DNA from: a virus
Taxonomy: Duplodnaviria; Caudoviricetes
Strand: one strand, 5' to 3'
Virus record (IMG/VR): IMGVR_UViG_2828164553_000001
Location: 32,001-96,000 of that record
DNA: 64,000 nucleotides
The notes under the pieces: model-generated
Databases searched by the model: none
Told to the model about the DNA's origin: nothing
What the model saw: the letters and a program-made list of their open reading frames with translations, nothing else
Part shown: positions 2,908 through 46,322 of the stretch, piece after piece
Layout of the letters: each line of letters starts with the position of its first letter
Position numbering within the stretch: position 1 is the first letter of the stretch
Translations under genes and position numbers: made by a program

Positions 2908-2923
2908 ATCCCACATATGGGAT
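2908..2923. promoter_or_regulatory. Palindromic operator inside a possible sigma70 promoter (AAGACA-18-TATGAT)
   Basis: ATCCCACATATGGGAT; the motif recurs several times in this prophage. Confidence 0.7.
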
Positions 2924-3033
2924 ATGATCCGACCTCACTATAGAGGAGCCACTTATAGCTCTCTTCCAGTCCTACCGGAGATGCGCTTCAAGTGACATTT
3001 CCGGCCGTGCCGGTTTCAACTGTTCAGCCAATA

Positions 3034-3060
3034 CCTCCGCCTTCGGGCGGGGGCGTTTTT
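3034..3060 (+). terminator. Intrinsic terminator/attenuator just before the RNAP gene
   Basis: CCTCCGCC-TTCG-GGCGGGGG followed by a T-tract. Confidence 0.65.
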
Positions 3061-3101
3061 CGTTTGCCCATTCAATCTCAACTTCGGGACGCATTCCTAA
3101 T

Positions 3102-5522
3102 ATGCAATCTACCGCCCAGACGCTCCATGACCGCCAGCTCCAGCTGGAGTCCGAATCAACCTCCCTCGGCATTGCCCGCTACGAGAAGGCCCGCGCCAAT
3201 TCCGACGAGGCTGACACCGGCCCCGGCAAGAAGCTGGTCATGCAGGCGGTCGCGGCCACCGGCCAAGCCATCCGTGAGTTTGTCGAGAAGGCCAAACAGG
3301 GCGGCGGTGGCCGGAGACACACGGCGGTGAAGTGGCTGGAGCATCTCGACCCCGAGGGCTGCGCCTACCTAACTGCAGTGGTATGCGTGAACGCCCTGGC
3401 TGGTGAGCAGGCCAAGTTGACCGCCGTTGCGCGCTCTGTCGGCTCTGCCATCGCACAGGACGTGAACTACAAGAAGCTGCGGGACAACCACGCAGGCCTC
3501 TATCGAGTAATCCAGCAGCAGCTCAAGAAATCCACCTCCGCGCATCACTCGACCGGAGTGATGAACCACGCCCTCGCCAAGACCGAAACCGAAATGTTCG
3601 TGTTCACGCCGGACGAAGAGGCTCTGGTCGGCATGAAGCTGATCGACCTCTTCATCGAGGCGTCTGGACTGGCCGAAATCATCCTGACCAGACCCCGCCA
3701 GAACCAAACCGTCGCGATCCTGCAGGGCACCGCAGCGATCCGCGAGTGGCTCGCCAAGGCACACGAGAGCGCCTCGATGTTCCTGCCCGTGTGGATGCCC
3801 ATGCTGGTCCCACCCAAGGACTGGACGACACCCCGCGACGGCGGCTACCTCACCGACATCGGCGGGAGAGCGGACCTCGTGCGTACGCGCAACCGCGCCT
3901 ACAAGCGGGAGCTGGAGCAGGCCGACATGCCCAACGTCTACCGGGCGGTCAACCTCATCCAATCCACCCCCTGGAAAATCAACAAACCAATCCTGGAGGT
4001 GATGCAGGACGCATGGGCCGTGGGCGGCGGCTTTGCTGACCTTCCCGACCGCGACCTCTTGGAACTTCCAGAGCAGCCCGCCTTGCTGGTCAGCGATCCC
4101 GAGTTCTACAAGGAGCACCATGCCGATGAATTCAAGGCATGGAAGCGCAGCCGCGCCGAGGTCTACGAGGAGAACGCCCGCGGCACCTCCCGCCGCCTTT
4201 CGGCTGCACAGAAGATCGCTCTGGCCGAAAAGTTCAAAGACGAGGCGGCAATCTATTTCCCGCACAACCTGGACTTCCGCGGGCGTGTGTACCCTATTCC
4301 CTCAATCCTTACCCCACAGGGCGACGACCAAGCCAAGGCTCTGCTGACCCTGGCTGAAGGCGTGCCGCTGGGAGAGGATGGCGCGTTCTGGTTGGCAGTC
4401 CATGTCGCCAACTGCTTTGGCGTCGATAAGGTCGCCTTCGCAGAGCGCGTGTCCTGGGTGAGAGCAAATGAGGAGATGATCCTCGACTCCGCGCTTAACC
4501 CGCTCGACGGCCAGCGGGCCTGGTCCAATGCCGATTCGCCCTTTTGCGCCCTCGCCGCTTGCTTCGAGTGGCTGGGCTACTCAATCAACGGTAACGAGCA
4601 CATGTCACACCTGCCGGTCGCCCTGGACGGCTCTTGCAACGGCCTGCAGAACTTCTCGGCGATGCTCCGAGATTCCGTCGGCGGCGCAGCGACCAATCTT
4701 TTGCCGCAGGACAAGCCGGCCGACATCTACACAGCCGTGATGGACGTGGCCGCCGTGCGTGTAAGGGCAGAAGCAGAGGCAGGCAACGCTTGCGCTTTGT
4801 TCTGGGATGGCGCATTGACCCGCGGCATCGTCAAACAGCCGGTGATGACACTTCCTTACGGCGTCACCAAGTCCGGCATGCGCGGCCAAGTGCAGGCCAA
4901 CGCCAAAAAGGAGGGACTCTCGCCCTCCAACGAGCAGGCCGCTTACCTCGGCGACATTCTCTGGGACTGCATCGGCGAAGTCGTGGTGGCCGCGCGCCAA
5001 GCGATGGACTGGCTGAAGGAAGCATCGAAGGTCGCATCGGCGTCCGACCTCCCAATCGCGTGGACGACGCCGGCAGGCTTTCCTGTACTGCAGGAGTATC
5101 GGGAGGACCTCGGCAAGCGCGTCACGACGCACATCGGGGGAAAGCGCGTCGAATTAATCGTGGCTATGGACGGGAGCAAACTTGACCGCCGCCGCCAGGG
5201 TCTCGGCATCTCCCCCAACTTTGTTCACTCCTGTGATGCGAGCCACCTGATGCTGACCACCTGTCTCGCGTCAGACAACGGGATCACTAGCTTCGCGATG
5301 ATTCACGACTCCTACGGAATGCATGCCGGAAACACCGGAATCCTTGCCGCCTCGTTGCGTCACGCCTTTATTGAGCAGTACGAAAGCGACGTGCTGGGTA
5401 ACTTCAGAACCGAACTGGCCGAACAACTCCCGATAAAAAACGCTGCTGACCTTCCGAAGATTCCTCCCTTCGGTGACCTGGACCTCTCCGAAGTGTTGGA
5501 GAGCAGCTATTTCTTTGCCTAA
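3102..5522 (+). CDS. T7-like single-subunit DNA-directed RNA polymerase (gp1)
   Basis: Motifs LDFRGRVY, LDGSCNGLQ, RGIVKQPVMTLPYG, PNFVHSCDA, IHDSY and C-terminal YFFA. Confidence 0.98.
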   Translation: MQSTAQTLHDRQLQLESESTSLGIARYEKARANSDEADTGPGKKLVMQAVAATGQAIREFVEKAKQGGGGRRHTAVKWLEHLDPEGCAYLTAVVCVNALAGEQAKLTAVARSVGSAIAQDVNYKKLRDNHAGLYRVIQQQLKKSTSAHHSTGVMNHALAKTETEMFVFTPDEEALVGMKLIDLFIEASGLAEIILTRPRQNQTVAILQGTAAIREWLAKAHESASMFLPVWMPMLVPPKDWTTPRDGGYLTDIGGRADLVRTRNRAYKRELEQADMPNVYRAVNLIQSTPWKINKPILEVMQDAWAVGGGFADLPDRDLLELPEQPALLVSDPEFYKEHHADEFKAWKRSRAEVYEENARGTSRRLSAAQKIALAEKFKDEAAIYFPHNLDFRGRVYPIPSILTPQGDDQAKALLTLAEGVPLGEDGAFWLAVHVANCFGVDKVAFAERVSWVRANEEMILDSALNPLDGQRAWSNADSPFCALAACFEWLGYSINGNEHMSHLPVALDGSCNGLQNFSAMLRDSVGGAATNLLPQDKPADIYTAVMDVAAVRVRAEAEAGNACALFWDGALTRGIVKQPVMTLPYGVTKSGMRGQVQANAKKEGLSPSNEQAAYLGDILWDCIGEVVVAARQAMDWLKEASKVASASDLPIAWTTPAGFPVLQEYREDLGKRVTTHIGGKRVELIVAMDGSKLDRRRQGLGISPNFVHSCDASHLMLTTCLASDNGITSFAMIHDSYGMHAGNTGILAASLRHAFIEQYESDVLGNFRTELAEQLPIKNAADLPKIPPFGDLDLSEVLESSYFFA

Positions 5523-5525
5523 TAC

Positions 5526-5541
5526 ATCCCACATTTGGGAT
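5526..5541. promoter_or_regulatory. Palindromic operator immediately after the RNAP stop codon
   Basis: ATCCCACATTTGGGAT. Confidence 0.7.
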
Positions 5542-5564
5542 TAATCCCGAGAAAGGAACAAATC

Positions 5565-5699
5565 ATGAGCATCAATTTCAACGCAAGTCTCGGCACCTAC
5601 GTCGCACTGGATGCCTACGGCCAGGTCCTCGCGATCTACAGCCCGTCCGCTCACGGAACGGTCGAGGAGTTCCGCAACGAGATGGGCCGGGCTGAGTGA
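5565..5699 (+). CDS. Small hypothetical protein (44 aa)
   Basis: AAGGA RBS; MSINFNASLGTYVALDAYGQVLAIY...; GTGA overlap with the next gene. Confidence 0.6.
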   Translation: MSINFNASLGTYVALDAYGQVLAIYSPSAHGTVEEFRNEMGRAE

Positions 5700-5986
5700 T
5701 CGAGCCTCGCCTCCGCTCGCACGTATTGCACTCCCGAAGCGCGCATGCAGCCTCCCGCGGCGCCTTCGCAGCACTCAGCGGCGTGCAAATGGTCGAGCAC
5801 CCCGCGGACCAGCTCATTGGGCTGGCCTGCGCTTTTCGATTCACCGCTGAGGAGTGCGGGTATGACCCGCTTTCACTCCTGGCACTCACCGAACGCATGG
5901 AAGCGGACTGCCGCTTCCGTGAACTCAACACCCTGTCGGCCGTCCGCAAGTACGCCCAGGAAGAACTGGCGAAGAAGCTCCCATGA
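5696..5986 (+). CDS. Phage hypothetical protein
   Basis: Translationally coupled at both ends. Confidence 0.65.
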   Translation: MIEPRLRSHVLHSRSAHAASRGAFAALSGVQMVEHPADQLIGLACAFRFTAEECGYDPLSLLALTERMEADCRFRELNTLSAVRKYAQEELAKKLP

Positions 5987-6132
5987 CACGCGAAATCGAA
6001 CGGCTGCTGGAACAGGCCGCCTTGGAAAACGAACTGTATGGAGCGGTTTTCGCCTCCACCGATGCCCGCCTTATCGAAGCCGGCTACCTCCCCGAAGAAT
6101 CAGAATTCCATGACCCAGAAGAAAGCGAATAA
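5983..6132 (+). CDS. Small acidic hypothetical protein (49 aa)
   Basis: ATGA overlap; MTREIERLLEQAALENELYGAVFASTDARLIEAGY... Confidence 0.55.
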   Translation: MTREIERLLEQAALENELYGAVFASTDARLIEAGYLPEESEFHDPEESE

Positions 6133-6787
6133 GCGATACGTGTCCCCGGCCGGTGCCGCCATCTGGCCGCGGCTGAATGCCCCCGACACCAAGTACAACG
6201 CGGACGGCGAGTTCTCCGCCAAGCTCGCGATGGAAGAGTCAGACGCCGACACCCAGGCGTTCATCAAGAAGCTGACCGCAATCCGCGACGAAGCCTTTGA
6301 GCAGTTCAAATCCGAGAACCCGAAACATAAGAAGGCCGCACTGGCGGACTTCTTCGCTTCGGAAACGGACGACGAGGGTGACGAAACTGGCAGGGTTACG
6401 TTCAACTTCAAGATGAAGCACAAGATCAAGGCGAAGAAGACCGGCAAGGTCTACACAATGGTTCCGACCATCGTGAACTCCAAGAAGGAAGTGCTGAAGA
6501 ATCCGCCGAACATTGGCGGCGGCAGCCTTCTCAAGGTGAGCTTCGAGGCCGTCCCCTACTTCGCGGCGGCGGACAAGAAGTTTGGCATTTCGCTGCGCAT
6601 GGTCGGCGTCCAGATCATCAAGCTGGTCGAGTTCGGCGGCGCCAGCCGTGCAGCCGACGACTTCGATGAGGAGGATGGCGACGACATCGCAGACGGCGCA
6701 GATCGTCCGAGCGATGACGACGACTCCGATGATTCGGAAGACGACAGCGACAGCGACGGAGATGATGGCGACGACGGCGACTACTAA
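6110..6787 (+). CDS. T7 gp2.5-like single-stranded DNA-binding protein
   Basis: WPRLNAPD, IGGGSLLKVSF, GISLRMVGVQIIKLVEF and a very acidic tail ending in an aromatic residue. Confidence 0.92.
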   Translation: MTQKKANKRYVSPAGAAIWPRLNAPDTKYNADGEFSAKLAMEESDADTQAFIKKLTAIRDEAFEQFKSENPKHKKAALADFFASETDDEGDETGRVTFNFKMKHKIKAKKTGKVYTMVPTIVNSKKEVLKNPPNIGGGSLLKVSFEAVPYFAAADKKFGISLRMVGVQIIKLVEFGGASRAADDFDEEDGDDIADGADRPSDDDDSDDSEDDSDSDGDDGDDGDY

Positions 6788-7268
6788 GCCCTCGTCCAAG
6801 GTCACGAAGGGGGCGGCGCTTGCCGCCTCTTTCATTTTTTCCATAGACCCCGTTCCGGCTTCTCGCCCCCGCGTTACGCGCTGGGGCACGTACCACCTGA
6901 AGACCTACAAGACCTGGCTTGAAGCGGCAGGCAAGTACCTCAAGGGCCTATCCCACGTCGCAGGACACGGCATCCGCCCGGATACGCCACTGATCGTTGT
7001 CGCCGAGTTCGTCTGCCGAAAGCCCAAGACGACCAAGCTGTTGACGCCGAAGGGCGACATCGACAACTACCTGAAAGCCCCGCTGGACGCGATTACACAC
7101 GCCGGCCTGTGGGGCGACGACAAGTGGATCACCACCGTCGTCGCAACCAAGCGATTCCAGGAACCCGGCGAAGAGCCGCACACCGCGTTGTCAGTGTACG
7201 AAGCTCCGCGCGAGAGCCTGTTCAATCAACTCACTCAGTTCATCCGGGGGATCTTCCGGTGCGACTGA
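6765..7268 (+). CDS. rusA: RusA-family Holliday junction resolvase
   Basis: PVPASRPR and DIDNYLKAPLDAI...WGDD motifs; GGAGA RBS. Confidence 0.85.
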   Translation: MATTATTKPSSKVTKGAALAASFIFSIDPVPASRPRVTRWGTYHLKTYKTWLEAAGKYLKGLSHVAGHGIRPDTPLIVVAEFVCRKPKTTKLLTPKGDIDNYLKAPLDAITHAGLWGDDKWITTVVATKRFQEPGEEPHTALSVYEAPRESLFNQLTQFIRGIFRCD

Positions 7269-7630
7269 AAAAGATGGCCAACCCTGACCAGCTGTTCGTA
7301 ACCGCCTCAATGACGCGGCCGGACCACTCTGTCACTGGCGCCGAACTGGCGCGCATCCACCGCTCGCAGGGCTTCTCCAAGATCGCAGTCCACTACGTCA
7401 TCGAGCGCGACGGAACCGTCTTCGACGGCCGCGGTTTGGACGAGCCGGGCTGCTTGGCCGCGCGCGCAAACGACCGATCGATCCAGGCGTGTCTGGTCGG
7501 CGGTGTCGATGACGCCCTGACACCAACCAACAACTTTTCCAAGCAACAGCGAATGGCGCTGCGGCGAGTCGTGCGTAAGCACGGTCTTCCCGTGGTGTTC
7601 GACCGCGTGTGCCCACTACAGGAAATCTAG
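7259..7630 (+). CDS. T7 lysozyme (gp3.5) homologue, catalytically degenerate
   Basis: HYVIERDGTV...GR and SIQACLVGGVDD...NFSKQQ align with T7 gp3.5, but the Zn-ligand His residues and catalytic Tyr are missing. Confidence 0.85.
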   Translation: MRLKKMANPDQLFVTASMTRPDHSVTGAELARIHRSQGFSKIAVHYVIERDGTVFDGRGLDEPGCLAARANDRSIQACLVGGVDDALTPTNNFSKQQRMALRRVVRKHGLPVVFDRVCPLQEI

Positions 7631-7632
7631 CA

Positions 7633-8013
7633 ATGAAACTGTCCCGTCAAGCCAACCTGATCGTCGATCACCTCTACAACAACCAGCACATCACCTCGTG
7701 GCAGGCTGAGGGCGTCTACCGCGTCCGCCGCCTGGCGTCGCGCATTACCGAACTGAATCGTGCCGGCTACGACATCCGCAAGGAGCGTTGCGAAGACGCG
7801 ACGGGGCAGTCCTACACGCGCTACTCCTTCACCCGAGCGCAAAAGCGTCGCAGCACGCCGGTGCACCCGCAGACCCCCGAGCAGCCGCGCTTTCTGCTGG
7901 ATCGCCTGATCGACCTTTACCGCACCTACTGCGCGAAGGAACTGGGCCTGGGTGGCGATGACCTGGACACCGAGACCGAAGACTTCCGCCGCTTCCTCCA
8001 GGAGGCCAAGTAA
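7633..8013 (+). CDS. Winged helix-turn-helix DNA-binding protein
   Basis: ITSWQAEGVYRVRRLASRITELNRAGYDI pattern. Confidence 0.7.
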   Translation: MKLSRQANLIVDHLYNNQHITSWQAEGVYRVRRLASRITELNRAGYDIRKERCEDATGQSYTRYSFTRAQKRRSTPVHPQTPEQPRFLLDRLIDLYRTYCAKELGLGGDDLDTETEDFRRFLQEAK

Positions 8014-8183
8014 TGGAAAAGGTTCAATCCGCAATGCGCCTCGCCTTCGCAAACGCCACCAAAAACGTGCTGAAGGAAGAACGCGAGCGTACCTACGCGA
8101 TGGTCCGTTCGGCTTCCAACCGCCAACTGGGCGTGACCCACCGCAAGACCATGTGGTCGGTCGAGCGTGTCAGCCGACGCTGA
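8013..8183 (+). CDS. Small hypothetical protein (56 aa)
   Basis: GGAGG RBS; TAATG overlap. Confidence 0.55.
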   Translation: MEKVQSAMRLAFANATKNVLKEERERTYAMVRSASNRQLGVTHRKTMWSVERVSRR

Positions 8184-9801: not shown

Positions 9802-9833
9802 GCCGCATCCCATCTCATCCAAGGAACAACCGC

Positions 9834-10079
9834 ATGACCCTCAAGACCACACTGCTGGCAATCCACGCCTTCCTAACTCCGGCCCCGAGCGTTGACGCCA
9901 TCTGCGCTGACCTGGATCGCACCCTGGGCAAACTGGACGCAGCCGAAGGAAAGCTGCGCGACCGCGCTGCAATCGCCGAAGCAAAGGCTGCCAAGTTGGT
10001 ACAGGAAGCCGTCGGCCACCGCTCGCGCGCCTTGCGTGCCGGTCGGGTCGCCAGTCGTATCAAGGCCATCATCGAATGA
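9834..10079 (+). CDS. Phage hypothetical coiled-coil protein
   Basis: AAGGA RBS before ATG 9834; ATGA coupling. Confidence 0.65.
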   Translation: MTLKTTLLAIHAFLTPAPSVDAICADLDRTLGKLDAAEGKLRDRAAIAEAKAAKLVQEAVGHRSRALRAGRVASRIKAIIE

Positions 10080-12590: not shown

Positions 12591-12619
12591 CCAAAGCACG
12601 CACCTCCGATCCGGCAGGT

Positions 12620-15304: not shown

Positions 15305-15838
15305 ATGAAGATCGTCGGCATCTCCGGCAAGGCTGGCTCTGGCAAGGACACCCTCGCCGGTTTTCTTGTCGAGCATCAAGGCTTCGTCCGTATCGCGCTA
15401 GCCGAACCATTGCGCCGCTTTGTGTCGGACATCACCGGCCTGAGCATGGAGGACCTGACCGCAGGCCCCCTGAAAGAAGCACCGCTCGACTGGCTGGGTG
15501 GTACTTCCCCCCGCCGCCTCATGCAGACCATCGGCACCGAATGGGGTCGAGACATGATCGACGAGAGCCTTTGGCTCAAAGTCGCCGCCCGCCGCGTTGA
15601 GGAGGCCCGTGCTTTCGGTGCTGCTGGTGTCGTCATTCCTGACGTACGTTTCGAGAATGAAGCGATGCTGGTGCGAGAACTGGGCGGCAGCGTGGTCGTC
15701 GTGGATCGACCGGGCGTCGCCTCAGTCGCAGACCATGCAAGTGAACGCCCCCTGCCCTCCGGGCTGGTGGACCACACCGTGGTCAATAGCGGGACGCTGG
15801 CGCAGCTTCGAGCGGCTGCGCAGGAATTGGCGAATTAG
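15305..15838 (+). CDS. Deoxynucleoside monophosphate kinase
   Basis: GKAGSGKDT P-loop, PRRLMQTIGTEWGR, DVRFENE, HASE. Confidence 0.88.
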   Translation: MKIVGISGKAGSGKDTLAGFLVEHQGFVRIALAEPLRRFVSDITGLSMEDLTAGPLKEAPLDWLGGTSPRRLMQTIGTEWGRDMIDESLWLKVAARRVEEARAFGAAGVVIPDVRFENEAMLVRELGGSVVVVDRPGVASVADHASERPLPSGLVDHTVVNSGTLAQLRAAAQELAN

Positions 15839-15881
15839 TCGGGCCTCTAGAGGGAAAACCCACGGTTTTCCCCTTTCTAGA
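15833..15881 (+). promoter_or_regulatory. Putative late phage-RNAP promoter with T7 phi10-like 5' hairpin
   Basis: AATTAGTCGGGCCTCTA|G followed by GAGGGAAAACC-CAC-GGTTTTCCCCTTTCTAGA, ahead of the virion module. Confidence 0.75.
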
Positions 15882-31350: not shown

Positions 31351-33375
31351 ATGGCAGAAACACCAGGCTACGTTTCCAATGCAAAGCTTGCAGAGCGCAT
31401 CTCGGCATTGGTAGACCGCTGGAACACGCGCGAAAATCAGATGATCGCGCTTCTGGCTCAACCCGAAGGATACGTAACGGTCACTGACGGCCTCGGCAAG
31501 GATCACGTCCTACCGTCCTTTCTGCAGCTCTCCAGGGATGTCTCGGAGCTTGTGGACGAACTTACGGGCGCCGTCAGCGGCGCTTCCGAGTTCGCCAATA
31601 CGGCCCGACTGTACGCTGAGGGCGCGCAGGCGTCTGCCAACGATGCACAAACGAGCGCTGAAGACGCAGCCGTGCAACTCGCAGACGCGACCGGGCGGGC
31701 AGAAGCAGCGGCTGCAAGTGCGACCGCAAGCGCCGCAAGCGCCTCCGCCTCAGAGTCGAGCAACCAATCGGCCGGACTACACGACAGCGCTGCATCCGCC
31801 AGCGCAGCCGATGCTGATGCTGATGCGATCCAAGCATCGAACTCCAAGGCCCAGGCCGTGGCCTCCGCAAGCGCAGCAGCGTCAAGTGAAGTCCAGGCGG
31901 CTTCCTACGCCCACCAGGCGGAAGATTGGAGCGACCAGGCACAGTCGTGGGCAAACGCTCCGGCTGGTACTGAGATTGAGCCAGGAGCGTTTTCAGCTAA
32001 ACACTGGTCCGAGCAAGCCAAGGCATCCCTCACTGGCACACTGGTCTACCGAGGCGGCTGGGACGCCGGCACTGGCGCGTTCCCATCGAGCGGTAACACT
32101 GGCGCGTTCTACAAGGTCACCGGAGGCGGCGCGATTGGCGGACGTCAGTACAACCCCGGTGACCAGATCGTCCATAACGGCTCTGGCTGGGACCACATCG
32201 ACAACACCGAACAGGTCACGTCGGTAGCCGGCAAGTCCGGGGCGGTCCAGCTGGTGCCCAGCGACATCTCCGGCCTGGGCACTCTAGCGACGCGCGACAC
32301 CGTGGACTTCAGTAGCCATGTCATAAACAAGCCAGCTTCGTATCCTCCTAGCGGACATATGCACACGAAGGGCGATGTAGGGCTTTCAAACGTGGACAAC
32401 ACCTCCGACGCGAACAAGCCAGTCAGCACCGCTCAGCAGACTTCACTGGATTTCAAAGCACCAATCGACAAGCCAGTCTTCACCGGGGGCGTAACAGTTC
32501 GGAACAACTTCCTTCGAGTAAGCGGCTGGCAATCGGTTCCCAACGATGGCGTGGTCTATTTCGGAGCGAGTGATAGCTGGCTCTTCAAGCAGGGAGATGC
32601 TTTCAGATTTCAGGTTGAAGGAAAGTTTAATGCAGTCCTGGATTCCTCTGGGACTGTCTGGACATCCGGAAACTTTAATCCGGCCTCCAAGGCCGATGTT
32701 GGCGGACAGCCGCGCTTCGCTGGCGTTTTTGTTGGCGCCAACAACGATCAATACCTCTACACTGAAGATGCGAATCAAAGCGTGGTACTGCGCTTCGGCT
32801 ATGGCACTTCTTTCAAGTACGCGAAGTGGAATGGCGTCACCGGCGCTTTCACCGCGCCCCACCTAATCGCGGGCGGAACCGGCAACGGAGCTTACGTACA
32901 GATTGGCGATGACGCGCGTTTGGTTGACATTGGCAGGAGCCACACCACTGCTATCCAAAGTACAGCGAATGGAAATATCGGATTTCTGCAGTTCGGATCG
33001 GGACCGACAATTGGCTGGGATGGCGCCACCCTGCAAGCGGCGGGACAAGAAATCAAGCATGCAGGCAATACCGGGTATTACGGTGTAAGTGGGCGGCAGC
33101 ATAGCGACTGGAATACCTGCGTCACTCAGGGCATCTGGATGGCTGTAGGCGCCACCAACTCTCCTGACAATTCCGATTGGTGGCTAGGCCACGTAACCGT
33201 ACACAACGGCGATTGGGTGCAGCAGGAGGTAATCAACTTCACCTCAAATCCGCCCAAGCAGTTCCGCCGCCAAAGGCAGGGCGGTAGCTGGGGCGCCTGG
33301 CAACAATGCGGCATGGTCATCGTATCGACCACAGACCCTGGCGGCGCCGATGGCGTCCTTTGGATTCAGCCGTAA
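31351..33375 (+). CDS. Second tail fibre protein
   Basis: GAGGA RBS; Ala-rich stalk, VGLSNVDNTSDANKPVST repeat, WGAWQ knob. Confidence 0.85.
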   Translation: MAETPGYVSNAKLAERISALVDRWNTRENQMIALLAQPEGYVTVTDGLGKDHVLPSFLQLSRDVSELVDELTGAVSGASEFANTARLYAEGAQASANDAQTSAEDAAVQLADATGRAEAAAASATASAASASASESSNQSAGLHDSAASASAADADADAIQASNSKAQAVASASAAASSEVQAASYAHQAEDWSDQAQSWANAPAGTEIEPGAFSAKHWSEQAKASLTGTLVYRGGWDAGTGAFPSSGNTGAFYKVTGGGAIGGRQYNPGDQIVHNGSGWDHIDNTEQVTSVAGKSGAVQLVPSDISGLGTLATRDTVDFSSHVINKPASYPPSGHMHTKGDVGLSNVDNTSDANKPVSTAQQTSLDFKAPIDKPVFTGGVTVRNNFLRVSGWQSVPNDGVVYFGASDSWLFKQGDAFRFQVEGKFNAVLDSSGTVWTSGNFNPASKADVGGQPRFAGVFVGANNDQYLYTEDANQSVVLRFGYGTSFKYAKWNGVTGAFTAPHLIAGGTGNGAYVQIGDDARLVDIGRSHTTAIQSTANGNIGFLQFGSGPTIGWDGATLQAAGQEIKHAGNTGYYGVSGRQHSDWNTCVTQGIWMAVGATNSPDNSDWWLGHVTVHNGDWVQQEVINFTSNPPKQFRRQRQGGSWGAWQQCGMVIVSTTDPGGADGVLWIQP

Positions 33376-37094: not shown

Positions 37095-37168
37095 GATAAG
37101 CGGGCACAGGGACGTGCCTGGCAAGGCGAAGTAGACCACTCCCAAGGCATCAATCCCAAACATGGACC

Positions 37169-37835: not shown

Positions 37836-37884
37836 CGGGTCGTCCTTAGGGTCGAAATGTTTGGCGGAGATTTCCTTGAGGGTA

Positions 37885-38303: not shown

Positions 38304-38348
38304 ATCCCGAGATTGGGACTTGACCCGATCATGGAATTGATCTAGCTT
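38304..38348 (+). promoter_or_regulatory. Early sigma70 promoter 1 with adjacent operator
   Basis: ATCCCGAGATTGGGAC (38304-19) abuts TTGACC-17-TAGCTT. Confidence 0.7.
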
Positions 38349-38354
38349 ATATCC

Positions 38355-38570
38355 CATCGGCCAGCCACACCGGCCGGCGCGATCCCTGAGCCGCCCAGCG
38401 CGGCGCTAAGAGAAGCAATCGGATTCAACCGGCCCCAGCCCGTGCAATGCGCTACTGGGGCGGCCTTCAAGGGCCTGCGACTACGCCGAGAGGCAACCGC
38501 AGGGGAACCGAAAGAGGCCAAGGCGGCTAGAGGCCGCACGGTTCCGGGGTGCTCTCAGGCATAGCCGCAA
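38355..38570 (+). ncRNA. Candidate structured non-coding RNA 1
   Basis: Closing stem CCTGAG/CTCAGG encloses several hairpins; no credible ORF. Confidence 0.5.
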
Positions 38571-38571
38571 C

Positions 38572-38622
38572 ATCCCAACATTGGGAAATAACTTGACAAC
38601 GGGACGATTCCAGATTTAGGAT
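38572..38622 (+). promoter_or_regulatory. Early sigma70 promoter 2 with two operators
   Basis: ATCCCAACATTGGGAA, TTGACA-18-TAGGAT, and ATTCCAGATTTAGGAT overlapping the -10. Confidence 0.75.
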
Positions 38623-38628
38623 ATGTCC

Positions 38629-38925: not shown

Positions 38926-38937
38926 CTGGAGAACCCG

Positions 38938-39090
38938 ATGGAACACGATGCGATCCCCTACGTTGCACCCGACGACCGCTTGATGGACACCGTGAGGTGG
39001 GAGCTGGCGTGCTACCGGACGAGTATCGGCCGTACTGAAGCTTTGTCCATTGCATCCCACATCTGGCACAAATCCCACGAAGGAGCGTGA
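38938..39090 (+). CDS. Early small hypothetical protein
   Basis: GGAG RBS; MEHDAIPYVAPDD... Confidence 0.55.
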   Translation: MEHDAIPYVAPDDRLMDTVRWELACYRTSIGRTEALSIASHIWHKSHEGA

Positions 39091-39091
39091 C

Positions 39092-39289
39092 ATGACTAGG
39101 CATAAGGAAGCGCACCACAGAAGAGTTCAAGCCGGCATGGGGAGGCCGGCAAGAAGAGCGCAGTACACCTGCCTGCGCGTCGTTGGCCGTTGGGTGCTGC
39201 GGCACCACGGCCTTGCGGTTGGCATCTATCCAACTCTGGGCGCACTTGTGGCGGCCCGGATCGAACACGAGGGACGCACTCATGGCTGA
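39092..39289 (+). CDS. Early hypothetical protein
   Basis: AAGGAG RBS. Confidence 0.55.
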   Translation: MTRHKEAHHRRVQAGMGRPARRAQYTCLRVVGRWVLRHHGLAVGIYPTLGALVAARIEHEGRTHG

Positions 39290-39518
39290 GCACGACGGGA
39301 TCACTGAGGGGCTGGAGTGCGACAACGCCGCAGTCATGGCCGGCTTCACTCGCGAAATATTCGCCAGGACAACGACGCTCGATCTGCACCTATTGATCCG
39401 CCCCGACACTGATTTAGACGGACACTTCCGCGCCTGGTGCACTGACGAGCAGGAGTGGCTGCGGATCGGGGGGTGGAACTTCTGCATTCAGGACGTAAAC
39501 TCTGGAGCGTCCGCATGA
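39282..39518 (+). CDS. Early hypothetical protein
   Basis: GAGGG RBS; ATGA coupling. Confidence 0.6.
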   Translation: MAEHDGITEGLECDNAAVMAGFTREIFARTTTLDLHLLIRPDTDLDGHFRAWCTDEQEWLRIGGWNFCIQDVNSGASA

Positions 39519-39676
39519 TCGAGGAGGACGCTTTGAAGCTCACCAAGCTGCGCGCTGAGATTCGCAAACTCAACCGCGAGTCGGACAAGCTGATGCTTGA
39601 GACTCGCTGGTATCCGATGGTCGTCACCACGGCGCTGTTCGCAGCGGTCGCGGCGGTCATCAAGTTGTTCGGCTGA
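39515..39676 (+). CDS. Early small coiled-coil/TM protein
   Basis: GGAG RBS; C-terminal hydrophobic helix. Confidence 0.6.
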   Translation: MIEEDALKLTKLRAEIRKLNRESDKLMLETRWYPMVVTTALFAAVAAVIKLFG

Positions 39677-39821
39677 ATGCCTGAAGTACCAGCGGGAGCG
39701 CTGCCCTAGCGCTACACCGGATGGGCTGCCTACGGCCCGGTGGCTGGTGAGTAAATCCTAGCAACCAGGTAAGCACCCGCACATCACTGGACGACGCGCC
39801 GCGCTGTCCGAAAATTCCCAC

Positions 39822-39844
39822 AAGCCGCCTCCGGGCGGTTTTTT
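39822..39844 (+). terminator. Intrinsic terminator in the early region
   Basis: AAGCCGCC-TCCG-GGCGGTT followed by a T-tract. Confidence 0.75.
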
Positions 39845-39864
39845 GTTGCCCGGAGAACGGCTGC

Positions 39865-40053
39865 ATGACATCGCACCAAAGCATCATCGACCGCGATATT
39901 GAGCAATACGAAAGCGACGTAGAGCACCACTCAATGGCGCTCCTGCGCTGTCCGAACGGTCAGGAGTGGCTGCACCGCCGCCGGAGGGATGCGGCCGCGT
40001 CAGCCGCAAGCGCGCTGCGGACGTACCGCGAAGCGCTGAAGGCCACCGCATGA
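39865..40053 (+). CDS. Early hypothetical protein
   Basis: GGAG RBS; ATGA overlap with ardA. Confidence 0.55.
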   Translation: MTSHQSIIDRDIEQYESDVEHHSMALLRCPNGQEWLHRRRRDAAASAASALRTYREALKATA

Positions 40054-40676
40054 GCAATCCACGCATCTACGTGGCCTGCCTGGCCTCCTACAACAATGGC
40101 GTCCTGCATGGGCGCTGGATCGAACTGGACGGGATGGACGCCGACGACGTGCAGGCGGAGATTGCCGCGATGCTGCGCGAGTCGCCACACCCGAACGTGA
40201 CCGCGGAGTGCCCGGAGTGCGAGGGCAGCGGCGACGCCGCCCCTGATCGTCCAGCGGGAGTCCCGCCGCTGTGCGCAATATGCAACGGCACCGGCAAGGT
40301 GCCAAGCGCTGAGGAATGGGCCGTCCATGACAGCGAAGACCTGCCGACCAGCTTCCGGGACACCGAACACCCCGACCTGTCCGCTTTGATGGAACGACTG
40401 GAGGAGCTGGAAGACCTCAGTGATGACGAACGCGAAGCCTTCGATGCCTTCTGCGAGGTCGAGGGGGAAGAGGACGTGGATACGTTCCGCGAGCGTTACA
40501 TCGGCGAGTTCAACAGCTGGGCGGAGATGGCCGAGCACCACGCGGACGAAACTGCGCTTCTTGAGGACGTCCCCGAGAACCTGCGGCGCTACTTCGATTA
40601 CGAAAGCTACGGCCGTGACATGCGGGCGGGGGGCGAGGCCTACGAATCGCACGGCCACTACTTCTGGAGCCACTGA
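40050..40676 (+). CDS. ardA: ArdA antirestriction protein with inserted CxxCxGxG zinc finger
   Basis: IYVACLASYNNG.L.G.W, EEWAVHD, YFDYESYGRD motifs; highly acidic. Confidence 0.88.
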   Translation: MSNPRIYVACLASYNNGVLHGRWIELDGMDADDVQAEIAAMLRESPHPNVTAECPECEGSGDAAPDRPAGVPPLCAICNGTGKVPSAEEWAVHDSEDLPTSFRDTEHPDLSALMERLEELEDLSDDEREAFDAFCEVEGEEDVDTFRERYIGEFNSWAEMAEHHADETALLEDVPENLRRYFDYESYGRDMRAGGEAYESHGHYFWSH

Positions 40677-40677
40677 C

Positions 40678-41208
40678 ATGAGCACCATCGAGCTGCACGG
40701 CCTGACCTTCGCCGTCGAGAAGGAACACGACTACGACGCCGGCGCGCCTTGGGACAGCGAGGAGGGACACGGGCCGGTCTCTGACTGGCGACACAAGCGC
40801 ACCAAGCGCCCCGGTGAGCTGGTGTTGAATCAGCACAGCCCGATGGAAGTCCGCTTCTACGACTTCGCGGAAGCCTGCAAGATCGCCCTACGTGATGGCT
40901 GGGGATCGCGCTACGCCGAGCCGGGCATGAGCAGGCGCCAGGTCGCCGCACTGGCCGCCCGCGAGGACTACGAACACCTCAAGGCGTGGTGCCGCGATGG
41001 TTGGGGATACATCGGCGTAATCGTCACGCTGCTTGATGCGGACGGCAACAAGACCGACTACAGCGATGAACTATGGGGCGTCGCGGATGACGGTTCACAC
41101 GCTGACACGATGGCTTGCGACCTCGCACTGAGTATCGGTGCGCTGGTGAACTGGGGACCGACTATTGAGCTGCCGGCGCGCACTGTCGAGTTGCGGAGGG
41201 CCGCATAA
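40678..41208 (+). CDS. Early hypothetical protein
   Basis: GGAG RBS; 176 aa. Confidence 0.7.
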   Translation: MSTIELHGLTFAVEKEHDYDAGAPWDSEEGHGPVSDWRHKRTKRPGELVLNQHSPMEVRFYDFAEACKIALRDGWGSRYAEPGMSRRQVAALAAREDYEHLKAWCRDGWGYIGVIVTLLDADGNKTDYSDELWGVADDGSHADTMACDLALSIGALVNWGPTIELPARTVELRRAA

Positions 41209-41286
41209 GCGGCTGTCACAACCAACACGCACACGGTGCTTCTGCGACAGGCGACTCGGGGCAGGGACACATGGATTTGGCCGCCA

Positions 41287-41838
41287 CTATTTCCGAAATT
41301 TCTGAAAACGAAGATAGCGCCCGAAGGCTGATTCGACTCGCCCACGCACATCGCCAATTTTTTTCTCTACTGCCCGCAGGGTTGCCATGTCATTCAGCGT
41401 GACCGCATCTGAGAGGTCGAAAGGCGACTTGCGCTCAAGACCTGTCGCCTCTCTCCGGATCAACTCCATATCGCTCCTGATTGCATACATGAGGCTTGTC
41501 ACCTCCCTGCCGAAGAGGAAGGACGCTTCAAGGAGGCAATCGTCAAATTCTGCAAGAACGTCCGCCGGGATGTCCTCGTACGGCTTGTGGAAACAATTGC
41601 TCTTTTGTCGGTACGCCGGCCCGCGCCGCCATCGGACCTCTGCCAGTACGCAATCTAGCAACCTTATTGTGGCCTTGTAGACCCTCAACCTTCGGTCATA
41701 CGAATCAAGCCGAAGTTTGATGGTTCCAGTTCGCCACTGAGCAACTGCGACCGCCACGCCCAATGCCGCGACGGCAGGGCCGAGAGTGGCTTTCATGAAT
41801 TCAATTACATCAACCATCGAGTCCCCAGTGATCAACAT
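41287..41838 (-). CDS. Moron: N-terminal TM hypothetical protein
   Basis: Reverse orientation, lower GC, hydrophobic N-terminal helix. Confidence 0.65.
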   Translation of the reverse strand: MLITGDSMVDVIEFMKATLGPAVAALGVAVAVAQWRTGTIKLRLDSYDRRLRVYKATIRLLDCVLAEVRWRRGPAYRQKSNCFHKPYEDIPADVLAEFDDCLLEASFLFGREVTSLMYAIRSDMELIRREATGLERKSPFDLSDAVTLNDMATLRAVEKKIGDVRGRVESAFGRYLRFQKFRK

Positions 41839-41889
41839 TCGGGGCTATTGGAGCACAGCTATGCAGTTTAAAAAGCTAGGAGCGCGGCG

Positions 41890-42156
41890 TTGAACAGCTT
41901 CTTCGATCCACGCGCCGACACTGCAGTCCACGCACCAGACGGCAAGGTATTTGCCTATGGTCCCCGCATCACCCGCGGGGGCACCTTCGGCAAACCTGAG
42001 TACGCCGAGCCTCCCAACCCCGGCGAGACGCCCGACCACTGGGAGGTCCGCTGGGTGGACTACTACGACAACGCGGGCCACTTCATAGACGGCTGGATCG
42101 CGGACTGCGCGGTCGAAGCGCACGCGAAGTTGCTGGCCAAGGCACTAAGTCAGTGA
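41890..42156 (+). CDS. Early hypothetical protein
   Basis: AGGAG RBS before a TTG start. Confidence 0.6.
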   Translation: MNSFFDPRADTAVHAPDGKVFAYGPRITRGGTFGKPEYAEPPNPGETPDHWEVRWVDYYDNAGHFIDGWIADCAVEAHAKLLAKALSQ

Positions 42157-42329
42157 AGGCGGTCGCAGACTTTAGACAGCATGCTGCCTCAATTAAAGCT
42201 AAGGCCTTGGGCCATTCTTTCAATTAGTAAAAGGCCGCCGACATAGCGTCGGCGACCAATGTTAAAACAGCTTTACTCAAAAGCTCCGAGATACTTCGCT
42301 TCTCAGCATAATTTCAAAAAAATTCAAAC

Positions 42330-42581
42330 CTACTTACTAGCCCGAGTTGGCGCGATGAAGTTAAAAAACCATCTCCAAGCTGACGTCACAGTCAACAAGC
42401 ACACTAGGCCCGAGAGAGCAGCCAAGATTACCATCCAGGGCTTCAGTGCTACAGGGAACGGCGGGTTCGAAAATGCGGCAGGCGCAACAAATCCAGACCA
42501 AACGCACACGATAAACGAAACCATGAATATTGCGGCAGTCCTCCCGCGAGGATAGCTTAATCCCAACATGTAGCACCTCAT
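42330..42581 (-). CDS. Small two-TM membrane protein (moron)
   Basis: Two hydrophobic helices; lies downstream of 42604..43494. Confidence 0.55.
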   Translation of the reverse strand: MRCYMLGLSYPRGRTAAIFMVSFIVCVWSGFVAPAAFSNPPFPVALKPWMVILAALSGLVCLLTVTSAWRWFFNFIAPTRASK

Positions 42582-42603
42582 GGATGAAATTTGACTTTTA
42601 AAG

Positions 42604-43494
42604 TTAGTCGTACTTGTAATTACAGGTAGTCTCAGGCTGCCCGTTTACGGTCCCTGTGACACAGATAACTCCATTGACTTTCCTCACGGGCGCCCCTTTC
42701 TCCATATTAACACCGATGATGAAAAGCTGATTCACAAACGCTGCCACATCCGTCTGACTCGACCCTGCGAAGTTGTAAACGGTCGTAACCCCAGGATTCT
42801 TGGGCAATTGATCTTTGTTTTGCGGTATTACATTGTTCGCGTTGTCTCGATATGATCCAGGCACCGGCTTAAACGTCTGAAAATCGCGATCCCAGAAATA
42901 TCGAGCCACTCCACCATCTGCATAACGCACGATGATTGGGATTTTGATATCACGCGCTAAAACTGGATTTACACCATTAACGATCATTTGAAGCATCCCG
43001 TAGAAGGGATGGCCGAGGAGCCAATTACTAACCGCCACTTGCCTACCAGGATTATACATGTCGTCATAAGGGGTTGTCGGAAATCCCGGCTGAGCAATGA
43101 TTTCAGGCTCTGCGGATGCTGTTCGCATAGCAGCCATGTAATTACTCATCCCGGACTCTACCGGCAGAACCGTGGGTACGATTACTGGGAGACAACCAGG
43201 GCGTGGCTGAGAACTGGGAGGACAAGGCACATCGCCTTCCCAGGTTCTTTGCATTCTCCACTTAAGAGTTCGGTCGTTACTGGCGTTTACGACATATATC
43301 TCTGTGGTGGAGGGCAAAGGTTGCGTTTGGGCGTACTGCCGCGCAGCTATCTGCATAGCTCCAGGCGCGCAACCTTCGCAGGAAATGGCTACTTCCTTGA
43401 CCTGTGCTGAAACATCACCGGTATATAAAAAAGAGCATACCGCGATTACCGGCAGTAATAGGGTGACTAGCTTTCCTGTGACCTTGTCGTGCAT
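42604..43494 (-). CDS. Secreted Cys-containing hypothetical protein (moron)
   Basis: GGAG RBS, Sec signal peptide (VSA-Q), three Cys pairs, AT-rich. Confidence 0.75.
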   Translation of the reverse strand: MHDKVTGKLVTLLLPVIAVCSFLYTGDVSAQVKEVAISCEGCAPGAMQIAARQYAQTQPLPSTTEIYVVNASNDRTLKWRMQRTWEGDVPCPPSSQPRPGCLPVIVPTVLPVESGMSNYMAAMRTASAEPEIIAQPGFPTTPYDDMYNPGRQVAVSNWLLGHPFYGMLQMIVNGVNPVLARDIKIPIIVRYADGGVARYFWDRDFQTFKPVPGSYRDNANNVIPQNKDQLPKNPGVTTVYNFAGSSQTDVAAFVNQLFIIGVNMEKGAPVRKVNGVICVTGTVNGQPETTCNYKYD

Positions 43495-43707
43495 TTCTCG
43501 CTCCATGATTTTAGGTTTTGTGCAGGCCCCCTGTTGCCCACGTCCGTTTATAGCACGTGAAGAAGCTGCGTCTACTTTCTTGACGCGATTCGCAGAAGGC
43601 GCGGCCTGCAAACGAATGGTCTTGCCGCATCTATGTCCTTCAATCGTTTCGAAAAATGGCAATACCACGCCTTTGGGAGGCTAATCTTGTGAACCACGTT
43701 GTGAAAA

Positions 43708-43958
43708 TGAACGTCGACGATCTTTTCGACTACATGTCGCAAAGGTCTGCGAAAGCGGGCAAGCGCGCTTTGGAGCGGGACAAGATCACAGCAGATGTTT
43801 CTTCGCGTCCTGCTGCGGAGACGTCAAAGATTGACCTGATCCTCGACTCCAGGGGACGCCCCCTGGTCTCCATCTGTGAGATGACCGGGCGCTTTAATAG
43901 CCGCCTGCGAGACACAACGCATGACACCTACGACGACGACGAGGGGGCCGATCAATGA
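43708..43958 (+). CDS. Hypothetical protein
   Basis: ORF with acidic tail and ATGA coupling; start uncertain (possibly 43690). Confidence 0.45.
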
Positions 43959-44149
43959 GCTGCGCCGCGCGTATGGTCACGACTTCGCACAACACGGGGA
44001 ACGATCTTCTGACTGCAATTGGCGATGCACTCGCAGCGGCACGTGTGGCGGCGCCTGAGGTGCCTGTCCAACTGCACGCGATTTCAAGGGAAGGCGGAGA
44101 GTGGGAGCTGACAGTAGTGCGTCGCCCGATGCCCGAGAGCAACTCTTGA
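43955..44149 (+). CDS. Hypothetical protein
   Basis: GAGGGGG RBS; ATGA overlap. Confidence 0.45.
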   Translation: MSCAARMVTTSHNTGNDLLTAIGDALAAARVAAPEVPVQLHAISREGGEWELTVVRRPMPESNS

Positions 44150-44644
44150 AGCCGGCAGAAGCGGCGCGAGAAGCGGGCATTCTTTTCGTGAAGACAGTGT
44201 TCCTTGCCTTTCTGTGCGGAGGCGTACTTCTAACACTCCTGGCGCCATTCCTGGCCTTATTTGCCCACGCTTGATGGCAGCCATGTCGCTGCCGGCACAA
44301 GAATTGCTAGTGATACTAACTTCGCATGGCATCTGAGGTTCTCGACTGAGATCGTTCTACACCCACCACATAACCCTAATTCGCGATATGGCCTAAATTT
44401 GATACGAGAGAAAGACTCAGTGAACTTCTTGAAGAGCCTGCTTGCTCTACTTTGCCGCCGTCCAAGATTCTTCCTAATCGAGGCTACGCCCAACCAGAAA
44501 GGCTTCTGGGTGGACGTGATCAACGTCAATTGCATGTATATCGGTCTCGGGATCGGTATCATTGCAATTGAGGGACATGACCCTTAATCGCGAAGAAGGA
44601 TGGATGCGGCTTCGCGCTCACCAGGCACATACGGAGCCGTCTCC

Positions 44645-45049
44645 ATGACACAGCTGACCACCGAAGAACTCGTGCAGATTCTCCACATCGCTCTTGGCGA
44701 GCTTCGCCAGGATGTTGAACCGGGGCTATTGGCATCCAAGATTCTCTGCCTCACTGCAACCTACAACCACCCGGGAACCCTGCAGTCCGAAATTACGAAG
44801 TACGTCAAAGACCTGACGCCTTCGGCAGCGTCCCGCCACATCATGGACTGGTCGTTTCGCGGCAAGACTCTCAAGCCGGGCGATCAGCCCAGCGGCATGG
44901 AATTTATCCAGCAGCAGGCCGATCCACTGTATCCGCGCCGCAACCTCCTCCACATGACCCCTAAGGGTCTTCAATACCTCTCAAACCTCACTGATCGCGT
45001 CAACGAGGCGCTGCAGAAGCGCGCCGTGCGTTCGGCGAAATCCGCATGA
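44645..45049 (+). CDS. MarR-like winged-helix repressor candidate
   Basis: GTLQSEITK...LTPSAASRHI HTH and DP..PRRNLLHMTPKG wing; GGAG RBS; directly upstream of the integrase. Confidence 0.75.
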   Translation: MTQLTTEELVQILHIALGELRQDVEPGLLASKILCLTATYNHPGTLQSEITKYVKDLTPSAASRHIMDWSFRGKTLKPGDQPSGMEFIQQQADPLYPRRNLLHMTPKGLQYLSNLTDRVNEALQKRAVRSAKSA

Positions 45050-45059
45050 TGGAGATGCA

Positions 45060-46322
45060 ATGCCGTTACGACTTAAGGGCACAGCCCCCCGACCCGGGGA
45101 GGCTGACCGTCGCTATTACATGATCGACGTGCAGGTGGAAAAGCGCCGGGAGCGACTATCCGCCGGAACTCGCGACAAGAACCTCGCGCTCCGTAAGGAG
45201 CAGAACATCATCGACGCGCTACGTGACGATCCTGAAGTCACTACGCTGGAACTCAAACGCATCCTCCGGGGCGAGCGTCTTGCCGCCATCCAGGATCGCC
45301 GCAGCGAAGATCGGGCCTGGACGCTGAAAGAAGCGTGCGACAAGTGCCTCAAGGACCGCGAGGACGGTGGCTGGGGTGCGGCGTCCTCCAACGACACCTA
45401 CGCAACTAACTGCCGCATGATCCAGAAATTCCTGGGAGCGGACACGCCGGTTGCCTTCATCGATCAAGAAAAGATTCGCGACCTTGCAGACCATCTCCTC
45501 GACGAAGAGGAGAACGCGCCTGCCACGGTAAACCGCAAGCTCTTCGCGCTGATGCACGTCTTGGCTTACGCCAAGCAGCACAAGCAGTACCCGAAGGAGC
45601 TCCCCAAGTGGAAACCGCACAAGGAAGGCGACAACGCTCGCCAGTTCGTGCTGACCGCGGAAGACGAGCGGGTGATATTCGATGCAATCGCCAAGCTCGA
45701 CGACCGACCGGACAACCCGCTCGGCGGCAACCAGGTCTCGCGCGACGCTGCGGACTTCGTTGACTGCTTTACCTTCTTGGCGGACGTTGGCTGCCGCTTC
45801 TCTCAGGCGCTGAAAGTGCGCTGGCGGGACATCGACTGGGACCTTATGCCGGGCGTCGTAGGCATCAAGTTCTGGCGCAAGGGAGAGCAGAAAGGAGGGA
45901 GGGTTCGCACTATTCCCTGCACATCCCGCGTGGTCGATGTACTCAAGCGGCGACGGGCGCTGGGAGGAGATGGCCCATTCTCGGGACTGCGCAGGCAGCG
46001 AGGCACCGAGCTATGGAACATGGCAAAAGCAAGGACCAACCTGGCTAGGGAAGAAGAGTGCGTTCCCCACTGCTTGCGGCACACGTGCGCAACCCGCTTG
46101 CTTGCTCGTACGGGCGACCTGAAGTTGGTTCAAGAATGGCTCGGACACACCAAGATTGAGACCACGGCGGCCATCTACGCGAAGGTGTTGGTGGACACAA
46201 AAGTGCGAGCGCTGAGTGCACTGCAAGACGGGTGGAATGGCGCGTCACCTATCCCAGATGTGGGAACAATCCAGGACTGCAACCTATCCCAACATCGGGA
46301 CGACCCGACAGTAACCCAGTGA
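45060..46322 (+). CDS. int: Tyrosine integrase of the T7-like prophage
   Basis: GCR, KGG, HCLRH, LGH and IY catalytic motifs; adjacent to att. Confidence 0.95.
   Translation: MPLRLKGTAPRPGEADRRYYMIDVQVEKRRERLSAGTRDKNLALRKEQNIIDALRDDPEVTTLELKRILRGERLAAIQDRRSEDRAWTLKEACDKCLKDREDGGWGAASSNDTYATNCRMIQKFLGADTPVAFIDQEKIRDLADHLLDEEENAPATVNRKLFALMHVLAYAKQHKQYPKELPKWKPHKEGDNARQFVLTAEDERVIFDAIAKLDDRPDNPLGGNQVSRDAADFVDCFTFLADVGCRFSQALKVRWRDIDWDLMPGVVGIKFWRKGEQKGGRVRTIPCTSRVVDVLKRRRALGGDGPFSGLRRQRGTELWNMAKARTNLAREEECVPHCLRHTCATRLLARTGDLKLVQEWLGHTKIETTAAIYAKVLVDTKVRALSALQDGWNGASPIPDVGTIQDCNLSQHRDDPTVTQ
46251..46301. promoter_or_regulatory. Two palindromic operators in the integrase 3' end
   Basis: ATCCCAGATGTGGGAA (46251-66) and ATCCCAACATCGGGAC (46286-301). 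Confidence 0.65.

Follow-up and report, generated by a model that had tools for sequence, protein, structure and literature searches.

Introduction

In temperate relatives of phage T7, MarR-like regulators have been proposed to repress the phage RNA polymerase (RNAP) gene through sites flanking its promoter (PMC10134795, citing Boeckman et al. 2022). In its account of these regulators that paper reports no binding data, and it lists no sites on early promoters or in the 3' end of an integrase gene. The way in which such phages silence a self-amplifying RNA polymerase is so far a hypothesis in the literature (PMC10134795), for which the locus described here provides a clean and testable case. 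We analysed a window of 64,000 nucleotides (positions 32,001 to 96,000 of IMG/VR virus record IMGVR_UViG_2828164553_000001) that contains a 43.7-kb T7-like prophage of Xanthomonas. This prophage carries eight copies of a 16-bp palindrome, ATCCCA-N4-TGGGAT, which are probably the operators of its own MarR-like repressor.

The closest described systems are phages LUZ100 (Pseudomonas) and Pasto (Rhizobium/Agrobacterium; Boeckman et al. 2022, as cited in PMC10134795). Both share with the window prophage the gene order of MarR-like gene, tyrosine integrase, tRNA-type attachment site (att), terminator, phage-type promoter (a candidate one in the window) and single-subunit RNAP. With approximately 40% identity, few RNAPs of isolated phages come as close to that of the window as theirs do, and the LUZ100 repressor, gp10, is homologous to the window's MarR-like protein. 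The window element differs in that it resides in Xanthomonas as a resident prophage, whose integration uncouples the early operon from the RNAP gene.

The palindrome is specific to the prophage

An earlier note on this DNA had listed eight palindromes, starting at 2908, 5526, 38304, 38572, 38607, 39054, 46251 and 46286, and both their coordinates and their sequences were correct. We scanned for the pattern ATCCCA-N4-TGGGAT and graded matches by number of mismatches. With up to three mismatches the window held 17 matches against 18.4 expected; this is the chance level, and such loose copies therefore carry no meaning. With up to two mismatches there were nine matches against 1.85 expected, a number reached by none of 100 shuffles, and all nine lay inside the prophage. 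Four matches remained with at most one mismatch (0.13 expected). The counts at these two stricter levels rule out a chance origin of the motif. Over the whole 121-kb contig, nine of the ten matches with up to two mismatches fell within the prophage. We also scanned a 5.1-Mb X. arboricola genome that carries a related prophage. It had seven matches with at most one mismatch, four of them in the prophage, and the sole two perfect copies bracketed the RNAP gene. With only three copies in approximately 5 Mb of host DNA, a host regulon motif was ruled out as well.

A position weight matrix (PWM) trained on the eight listed sites scored them at 16.6-26 bits. The next best match, at 3075-3090, reached 13.2 bits, and everything below this was background, equally common inside and outside the prophage. 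Two 'degenerate copies' claimed in the earlier note, at 37153 (9.1 bits) and 37171, scored at background level and were not conserved in relatives; they should be dropped. An extra match at 42995 also had a background score and lies in a low-GC insert that relatives lack. Because their PWM scores are at background level, 37153, 37171 and 42995 are all unsupported. The earlier note had not noticed the motif in the neighbouring prophages; the neighbouring DNA does contain other prophage-like genes and gave one weak match only. These results confirm that the motif is real and prophage-specific.

Within each palindrome the half-site centres are 10 bp apart. At four of the eight sites a third half-site, TCC[CA], starts 20 nucleotides from the start of the site, which is suggestive of tandem weak sites.

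Half-sites are conserved in related proviruses

Seven proviruses in IMG/VR encode an RNAP 87-96% identical to the window's. Four records that keep the motif (G001-G004) were searched whole and gave 4-6 matches each at syntenic places, whilst the reversed control pattern gave none. Four relatives showed no change at any of the 12 half-site positions of the site that precedes the RNAP gene. The centres of this site in the four sequences were CATA, CATA, GATT and GATA, and its flanks diverged strongly. The site after the RNAP stop codon, compared in six proviruses, and the early-promoter sites showed the same conserved half-sites and variable centres. In the imperfect copies, mismatches were not compensated: ATTCCA/TAGGAT at 38607 and ATCCCA/TGGCAC at 39054 both break pairs. 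Retention of the half-sites whilst centre and flanks vary is the footprint expected of a dimeric protein that recognises a specific sequence, as opposed to a hairpin. The comparison thus supports the view that the palindromes behave as protein-binding sites.

A MarR-like protein is the probable binder

The earlier note had attributed the palindromes to a MarR-like protein encoded at 44645..45049. The gene is on the plus strand, directly upstream of the integrase gene. Its 134-amino-acid product, a putative repressor, starts at the second Met of its open reading frame (ORF), as in its homologues. It has almost no close relatives, and an exhaustive search led to a family of proteins of approximately 125 amino acids. 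The profile of 30 family members matched solved MarR structures, with 3bpv the best (E 4.6e-9) and SlyA, MexR and MepR also found, and eight of the 30 members matched PF12802 (MarR_2). An alignment-based AlphaFold2 (AF2) model was confident (predicted local distance difference test, pLDDT, 93.5; predicted template modelling score, pTM, 0.83), whilst the single-sequence fold was useless (pLDDT 41.8). Comparison of the AF2 model with the PDB by Foldseek returned MarR-family regulators for all matches listed, with template modelling (TM) scores of 0.45-0.65. Model and matches indicate a winged helix-turn-helix (wHTH) with N- and C-terminal helices. The protein has an insertion of about nine residues between recognition helix and wing, and a single Cys. 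LUZ100 gp10, which is annotated as a MarR-family regulator, aligned with the family at 99.7% probability in hhalign (E 2.8e-26). A tblastn search with the repressor over 50,697 phage records found nothing, the protein being too divergent. Family profile, structural model and gp10 homology together thus bear out the earlier assignment: as judged from sequence and model, the 134-amino-acid protein is a member of the MarR regulators.

An identical protein (100%) is encoded by a provirus of Xanthomonas arboricola pv. juglandis CFBP 2528. A database protein of 2359 amino acids (P0003) has 40 separate stretches that match the C-terminal part of the MarR-like protein; it may be an unusual repeat protein, or else an artefact.

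The divergent relative G005 shows how motif and protein vary together. Its RNAP is 86% identical to the window's, its integrase 76% and its wHTH protein (PF14090; gene at 7633 in the window) 82%, and most of its other proteins are similar, whilst its MarR-like protein is only 35% identical. G005 had one chance-level match to the window motif and seven matches to a different palindrome, ATCCA-N4-TGGAT, against 1.0 expected. Some of these adjoin the RNAP gene, immediately before its ATG and immediately beyond its stop codon. Others fall within the 3' end of the integrase gene, within and next to the spacer of the homologous TTGACA early promoter and, as two tandem copies, ahead of the repressor operon. 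Window and G003 share the recognition helix ASRHIMDWS, where G005 has SSRNVTSWT. In G003 and G004 the MarR-like protein is 60% and 62% identical, respectively, and both keep the window motif. Motif and recognition helix are thus seen to change together in these sequences. By contrast, the wHTH protein, which the earlier note had offered as the alternative binder, has only four differences from its G005 counterpart in the first 82 residues, which contain its DNA-binding domain. This domain is nearly unchanged whilst the motif differs, which argues against that alternative. We conclude that the palindromes are predicted operators of the prophage's own MarR-like repressor, with a probability of roughly 0.75, and infer that they form an immunity regulon, as the earlier note had labelled them.

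Looser parallels were found in more distant phages. The left 11 kb of LUZ100 contains eight matches to ATCCAC-NN-GCGCAT (1.0 expected). Five of these are at 378, 579, 3941, 3997 and 6691. P1 and P2, the host promoters that have been mapped, each have a match in the spacer; two more separate the integrase gene from the phage promoter phi1, and one lies 5 nucleotides beyond the RNAP stop codon. The LUZ100 element is a pseudo-palindrome, in contrast to the clean 16-bp palindrome of the window prophage. At both P1 and P2 the site overlaps a second palindrome, GCGCAT-AAG-ATGCGC, which covers the -10 box. A fourth lineage (L008-L011), with an RNAP 43% identical to the window's, has its own MarR-like gene and, by eye, TTCCACT at the corresponding places.

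Several points weigh against assigning the sites to the MarR-like protein. The covariation is essentially one switch, that in G005, since the parallels in LUZ100 and the L011 group are looser and were drawn by eye. The early region is highly variable among relatives, so that the motif might equally co-vary with some small early protein that went unrecognised. As a single sequence the 134-amino-acid protein has no Pfam match. The two half-sites are unequally retained, with two mismatches on the left against eight on the right over the eight sites. An autoregulatory operator before the repressor gene was looked for and not found here, though G005 has two.

Alternative explanations

It is possible, albeit unlikely, that the palindromes are operators of another phage regulator, either an unrecognised small early protein (Cro-like and possibly sharing the sites with the MarR-like protein) or the wHTH protein at 7633. 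A large number of early ORFs could not be assigned to a family and differ between the window and G005, and the wHTH protein has a confident DNA-binding domain, though, as described above, this domain is nearly constant whilst the motif is not. No other early ORF showed a DNA-binding signature. The wHTH gene itself belongs to the replication module, which follows the RNAP gene; Pasto has a PF14090 gene at the same place, and LUZ100 has gp18, annotated as a putative DNA-binding protein, at the corresponding position. A gene placed downstream of RNAP in the replication module cannot therefore maintain lysogeny while RNAP is off. A role for the integrase is harder still to reconcile with the data. 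The copies at 46251, 46286 and 2908 are approximately 100, 68 and 167 bp from the att core, which is the usual range of arm-type sites, and G005 retains the 35-bp distance between the two copies at the integrase 3' end. It is nevertheless very unlikely that these copies are arm-type or accessory sites for integrase or excisionase: arm sites would leave unexplained why the same motif occurs 8 kb away on early promoters and directly beyond the RNAP stop codon. Arm-type sites are confined to approximately 200 bp around the att core, whereas the distance from it is 2.8 to 8 kb for five of the eight sites. The integrase is 82% identical in G003, where the motif is kept, and 76% in G005, where it is lost; integrase identity therefore does not track the motif. 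The att-proximal copies could nonetheless have a dual role, as operators and in recombination.

We give very little credence to the idea that the palindromes are promoters of the phage RNAP. By-eye alignment of the 5526 copy with the T7 promoter gave 15 of 23 positions alike, and LUZ100 has phi2 at the equivalent place beyond its RNAP gene; T7 also has a promoter after gene 1. No copy, however, is present between 5541 and 37153, that is, before any replication or structural gene. T7-type promoters are asymmetric, approximately 20 bp long and repeated before middle and late genes, whilst conservation here is symmetric over both half-sites. In three instances, counting G005, the sites are inside the spacers of sigma70 promoters, and the motif changes in G005 despite an RNAP 86% identical, whilst the sequence at 2836-2853 (see below) is unchanged. 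A T7-like sequence at 2934, CTCACTATAG, occurs just once in the window and is missing its conservation in both L004 and L006, and a de novo search for phage promoters by counting 13-mers returned GC-rich coding words only. RNA or DNA hairpins are a similarly improbable account. Gene 1 of T7 is flanked on each side by RNase III sites, and the perfect copies here can fold into a 6-bp stem with a 4-nucleotide loop, so that they might be RNase III sites bracketing the RNAP gene, or pause sites. Such a stem is too short for RNase III, the imperfect copies have uncompensated mismatches, and base identity in the half-sites is conserved across relatives beyond mere complementarity. Binding by the MarR-like repressor remains our preferred reading of the palindromes.

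Sites around the RNAP gene and the attachment site

The RNAP gene (3102..5522, plus strand; Pfam RNA_pol, E 3.8e-116, and RPOL_N) is bracketed by two putative operators, as had been claimed. The first, ATCCCACATATGGGAT at 2908..2923, is a perfect palindrome in the spacer of a sigma70-like promoter, AAGACA-18-TATGAT (2899..2928, plus strand; 9/12 in a promoter scan). The -10 box of this promoter reads TATGAT, TATGAA or TAAGAT in relatives. The second, ATCCCACATTTGGGAT at 5526..5541, begins 4 nucleotides after the RNAP stop codon. Six related proviruses have it at this very place, though its centre varies, and the position is also occupied in G005 and LUZ100. A weak putative operator, ATCTCAACTTCGGGAC at 3075..3090, lies 12 nucleotides before the RNAP ATG and is the best PWM match after the training sites. 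It is conserved in relatives and syntenic with a G005 site at 1771.

Approximately 55 bp upstream of the 2908 site is a candidate promoter for the phage RNAP, TTAGTCGGGGCTATAGAC (2836..2853, plus strand). With up to three mismatches this sequence had three matches (2836-2853, 5154-5171 and 15835-15852) against 0.02 expected. Its core, GTCGGGGCTATAGAC, was invariant in five related proviruses, G005 included, and one relative had A for G just before the core. We read it as a probable promoter of the phage RNAP, with one copy before the polymerase's own gene.

Between these promoters and the RNAP start codon, a terminator scan identified an intrinsic terminator (3034..3060, plus strand) that is conserved in relatives. 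In L007 the stem has a different sequence but by eye is apparently still self-complementary. The leader between the 2899 promoter and the RNAP gene (2935-3060) is conserved and ends in this terminator. RNAP expression seems to need read-through of the terminator.

Two further putative operators, at 46251..46266 and 46286..46301, lie 35 bp apart inside the 3' end of the tyrosine integrase gene (45060..46322, plus strand; Pfam Phage_integrase, E 6.2e-17), within its last 24 codons. Both are conserved in relatives, and the 46251 site is of the ATCCA type in G005. In the circular form of the phage they face the 2908 site across the phage attachment site (attP), with 46251 and 46286 on one side of the att core and 2908 on the other. 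All three are within approximately 300 bp around the core of the excised circle, in agreement with the clustering at attP noted earlier. In the circle the candidate promoter at 2836 is thereby flanked by putative repressor sites, 46251 and 46286 before it and 2908 and 3075 behind it, as has been proposed for temperate T7-like phages.

Sites in the early region

Contact between the sites and -35/-10 boxes, another observation of the earlier note, was seen at two early promoters as well as at 2908. The putative operator at 38304..38319 abuts the -35 box of early promoter 1, TTGACC-17-TAGCTT (TTGACC at 38320-38325, TAGCTT at 38343-38348). Early promoter 2 is a sigma70 promoter, TTGACA-18-TAGGAT (38593..38622, plus strand; promoter scan 10/12), and is conserved in relatives including G005. 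One putative operator (38572..38587) is just upstream of its -35 box and another (38607..38622) covers its spacer and -10 box. The remaining early site (39054..39069) is 22 nucleotides upstream of a small early ORF with its ATG at 39092. It is conserved in four relatives, and its region is 76% identical over 41 nucleotides to that of the 5526 site (repeat family D1). An AP2-like identity considered for this small ORF had no Pfam support. No plus-strand promoter could be recognised that overlaps any of the sites at 5526, 39054, 46251 and 46286. Ahead of the repressor gene, inspection by eye gave a single weak promoter candidate, TTGCAA-17-TAATCG (44562-44590).

The two early promoters are separated by approximately 220 bp (38350-38570) with no convincing ORF, no Rfam match and many self-complementary runs. 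This stretch is strongly conserved in all relatives, the divergent G005 included, and is a candidate early non-coding RNA transcribed from the first operator-controlled promoter.

Organisation of the prophage and its neighbours

The prophage ends in an exact 53-bp direct repeat at tRNA-His (repeat family D6). The left copy, attL (2689..2741), is a duplicated 3' end of tRNA-His and is 100% identical to the right copy, attR (46354..46406), which lies inside tRNA-His itself (46359-46435, minus strand). An Rfam scan found two tRNAs and nothing else. Every recognisable prophage gene is on the plus strand. After closure at att, the order is early region (approximately 38.3-44.6 kb), MarR-like gene, integrase gene, attP, RNAP gene, and replication and structural genes. 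In the excised phage, the early sigma70 promoters would thus be followed by the early genes, including ArdA, and then by the MarR-like and integrase genes and attP. Beyond attP come the candidate phage-RNAP promoter, the weak sigma70 promoter, the terminator, the RNAP gene and the middle and late genes.

Pfam and PHROGs searches with 20 early-region ORFs matched only ArdA and phrog_11104. The ArdA anti-restriction gene (39966..40676) occupies a position in the early region that is the functional counterpart of that of T7 gene 0.3. Minus-strand ORFs at 43977-44562 look spurious, and by eye small coupled plus-strand ORFs fit this stretch better. The low-GC insert at 42259-43668 (approximately 52% GC versus 61%) is missing from all compared relatives. 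It encodes a 354-amino-acid minus-strand ORF without a Pfam or PHROG match and may be a moron. An ORF with an Amidase_2 domain (T7-lysozyme-like; 7109-7630) is immediately upstream of the wHTH gene.

The mobile DNA to the left (900-2087) has an integrase adjoining tRNA-Lys. That to the right (46467-61725) encodes a pair resembling UmuD/UmuC (47524-49289) and a methyltransferase of the Dam type (50859-51779), and has lambda-like tail genes, among them a GpJ-like gene (53438-57886) and a tape measure gene (59089-61725).

Discussion

If the palindromes are bound by the MarR-like repressor, presumably as a dimer, repressor at 38304, 38572 and 38607 would occlude the two early promoters of the host RNAP. 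Repressor at 2908, in the spacer of the promoter nearest the phage RNAP gene, would block host RNAP there. Together with the weak 3075 site and the terminator, the 2908 site would hold the phage RNAP, a self-amplifying loop, in the off state, and without this polymerase there would be no middle or late gene expression. Sites at 5526, 39054, 46251 and 46286 might be anchors for looping or cooperative binding, or might act on attP; the earlier suggestion that they are roadblocks is one possibility. Integration at attP disconnects the early operon from the RNAP gene, so that read-through from the early promoters cannot reach RNAP.

A wider reading is rather unlikely but can be stated in full. Xanthomonas T7-like prophages may fall into heteroimmune groups that arose by coordinated change of the recognition helix and of the whole operator network, from 16-bp ATCCCA-N4-TGGGAT to 14-bp ATCCA-N4-TGGAT or the reverse, including the copies inside the integrase coding sequence, with att-proximal operators in a dual role. 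The repressor would then also shape attP or sense the integration state. Integration would unplug the RNAP gene from early transcription and at the same time split one operator cluster into two distant halves.

The locus has several assets for experiment: eight defined putative operators, a small predicted repressor whose structure is modelled with confidence, and, in G005, a specificity variant that arose naturally. As both the helix and the operator at these positions are different in G005, cross-binding and heteroimmunity experiments would be straightforward. The system also offers orthogonal repressor-operator pairs for the control of T7-type expression systems.

Compared with classical MarR-family regulators (E. 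coli MarR, MexR, MepR, SlyA and OhrR), the predicted repressor shares the fold and the use of short palindromic or pseudo-palindromic targets that overlap -35/-10 boxes, often in tandem. It differs in its small size (134 amino acids), its insertion of about nine residues and its single Cys, and in that it would control a phage developmental switch and not an efflux or stress operon. The arrangement also resembles the OR/OL operators of lambda CI, where a phage repressor acts at several palindromic operators on early promoters, and where operator and repressor change together between related phages. Because of this joint change, heteroimmunity is predicted for the Xanthomonas prophages. Unlike lambda CI, the window repressor has no S24 peptidase domain and there is no divergent cI/cro promoter pair; the genes all run in one direction, the key target would be the phage RNA polymerase gene, and integration would rewire the circuit. 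Since MarR sites flanking the RNAP promoter have already been proposed (PMC10134795), the window prophage is a new and well-marked example of an already proposed MarR control scheme, and not a new kind of system.

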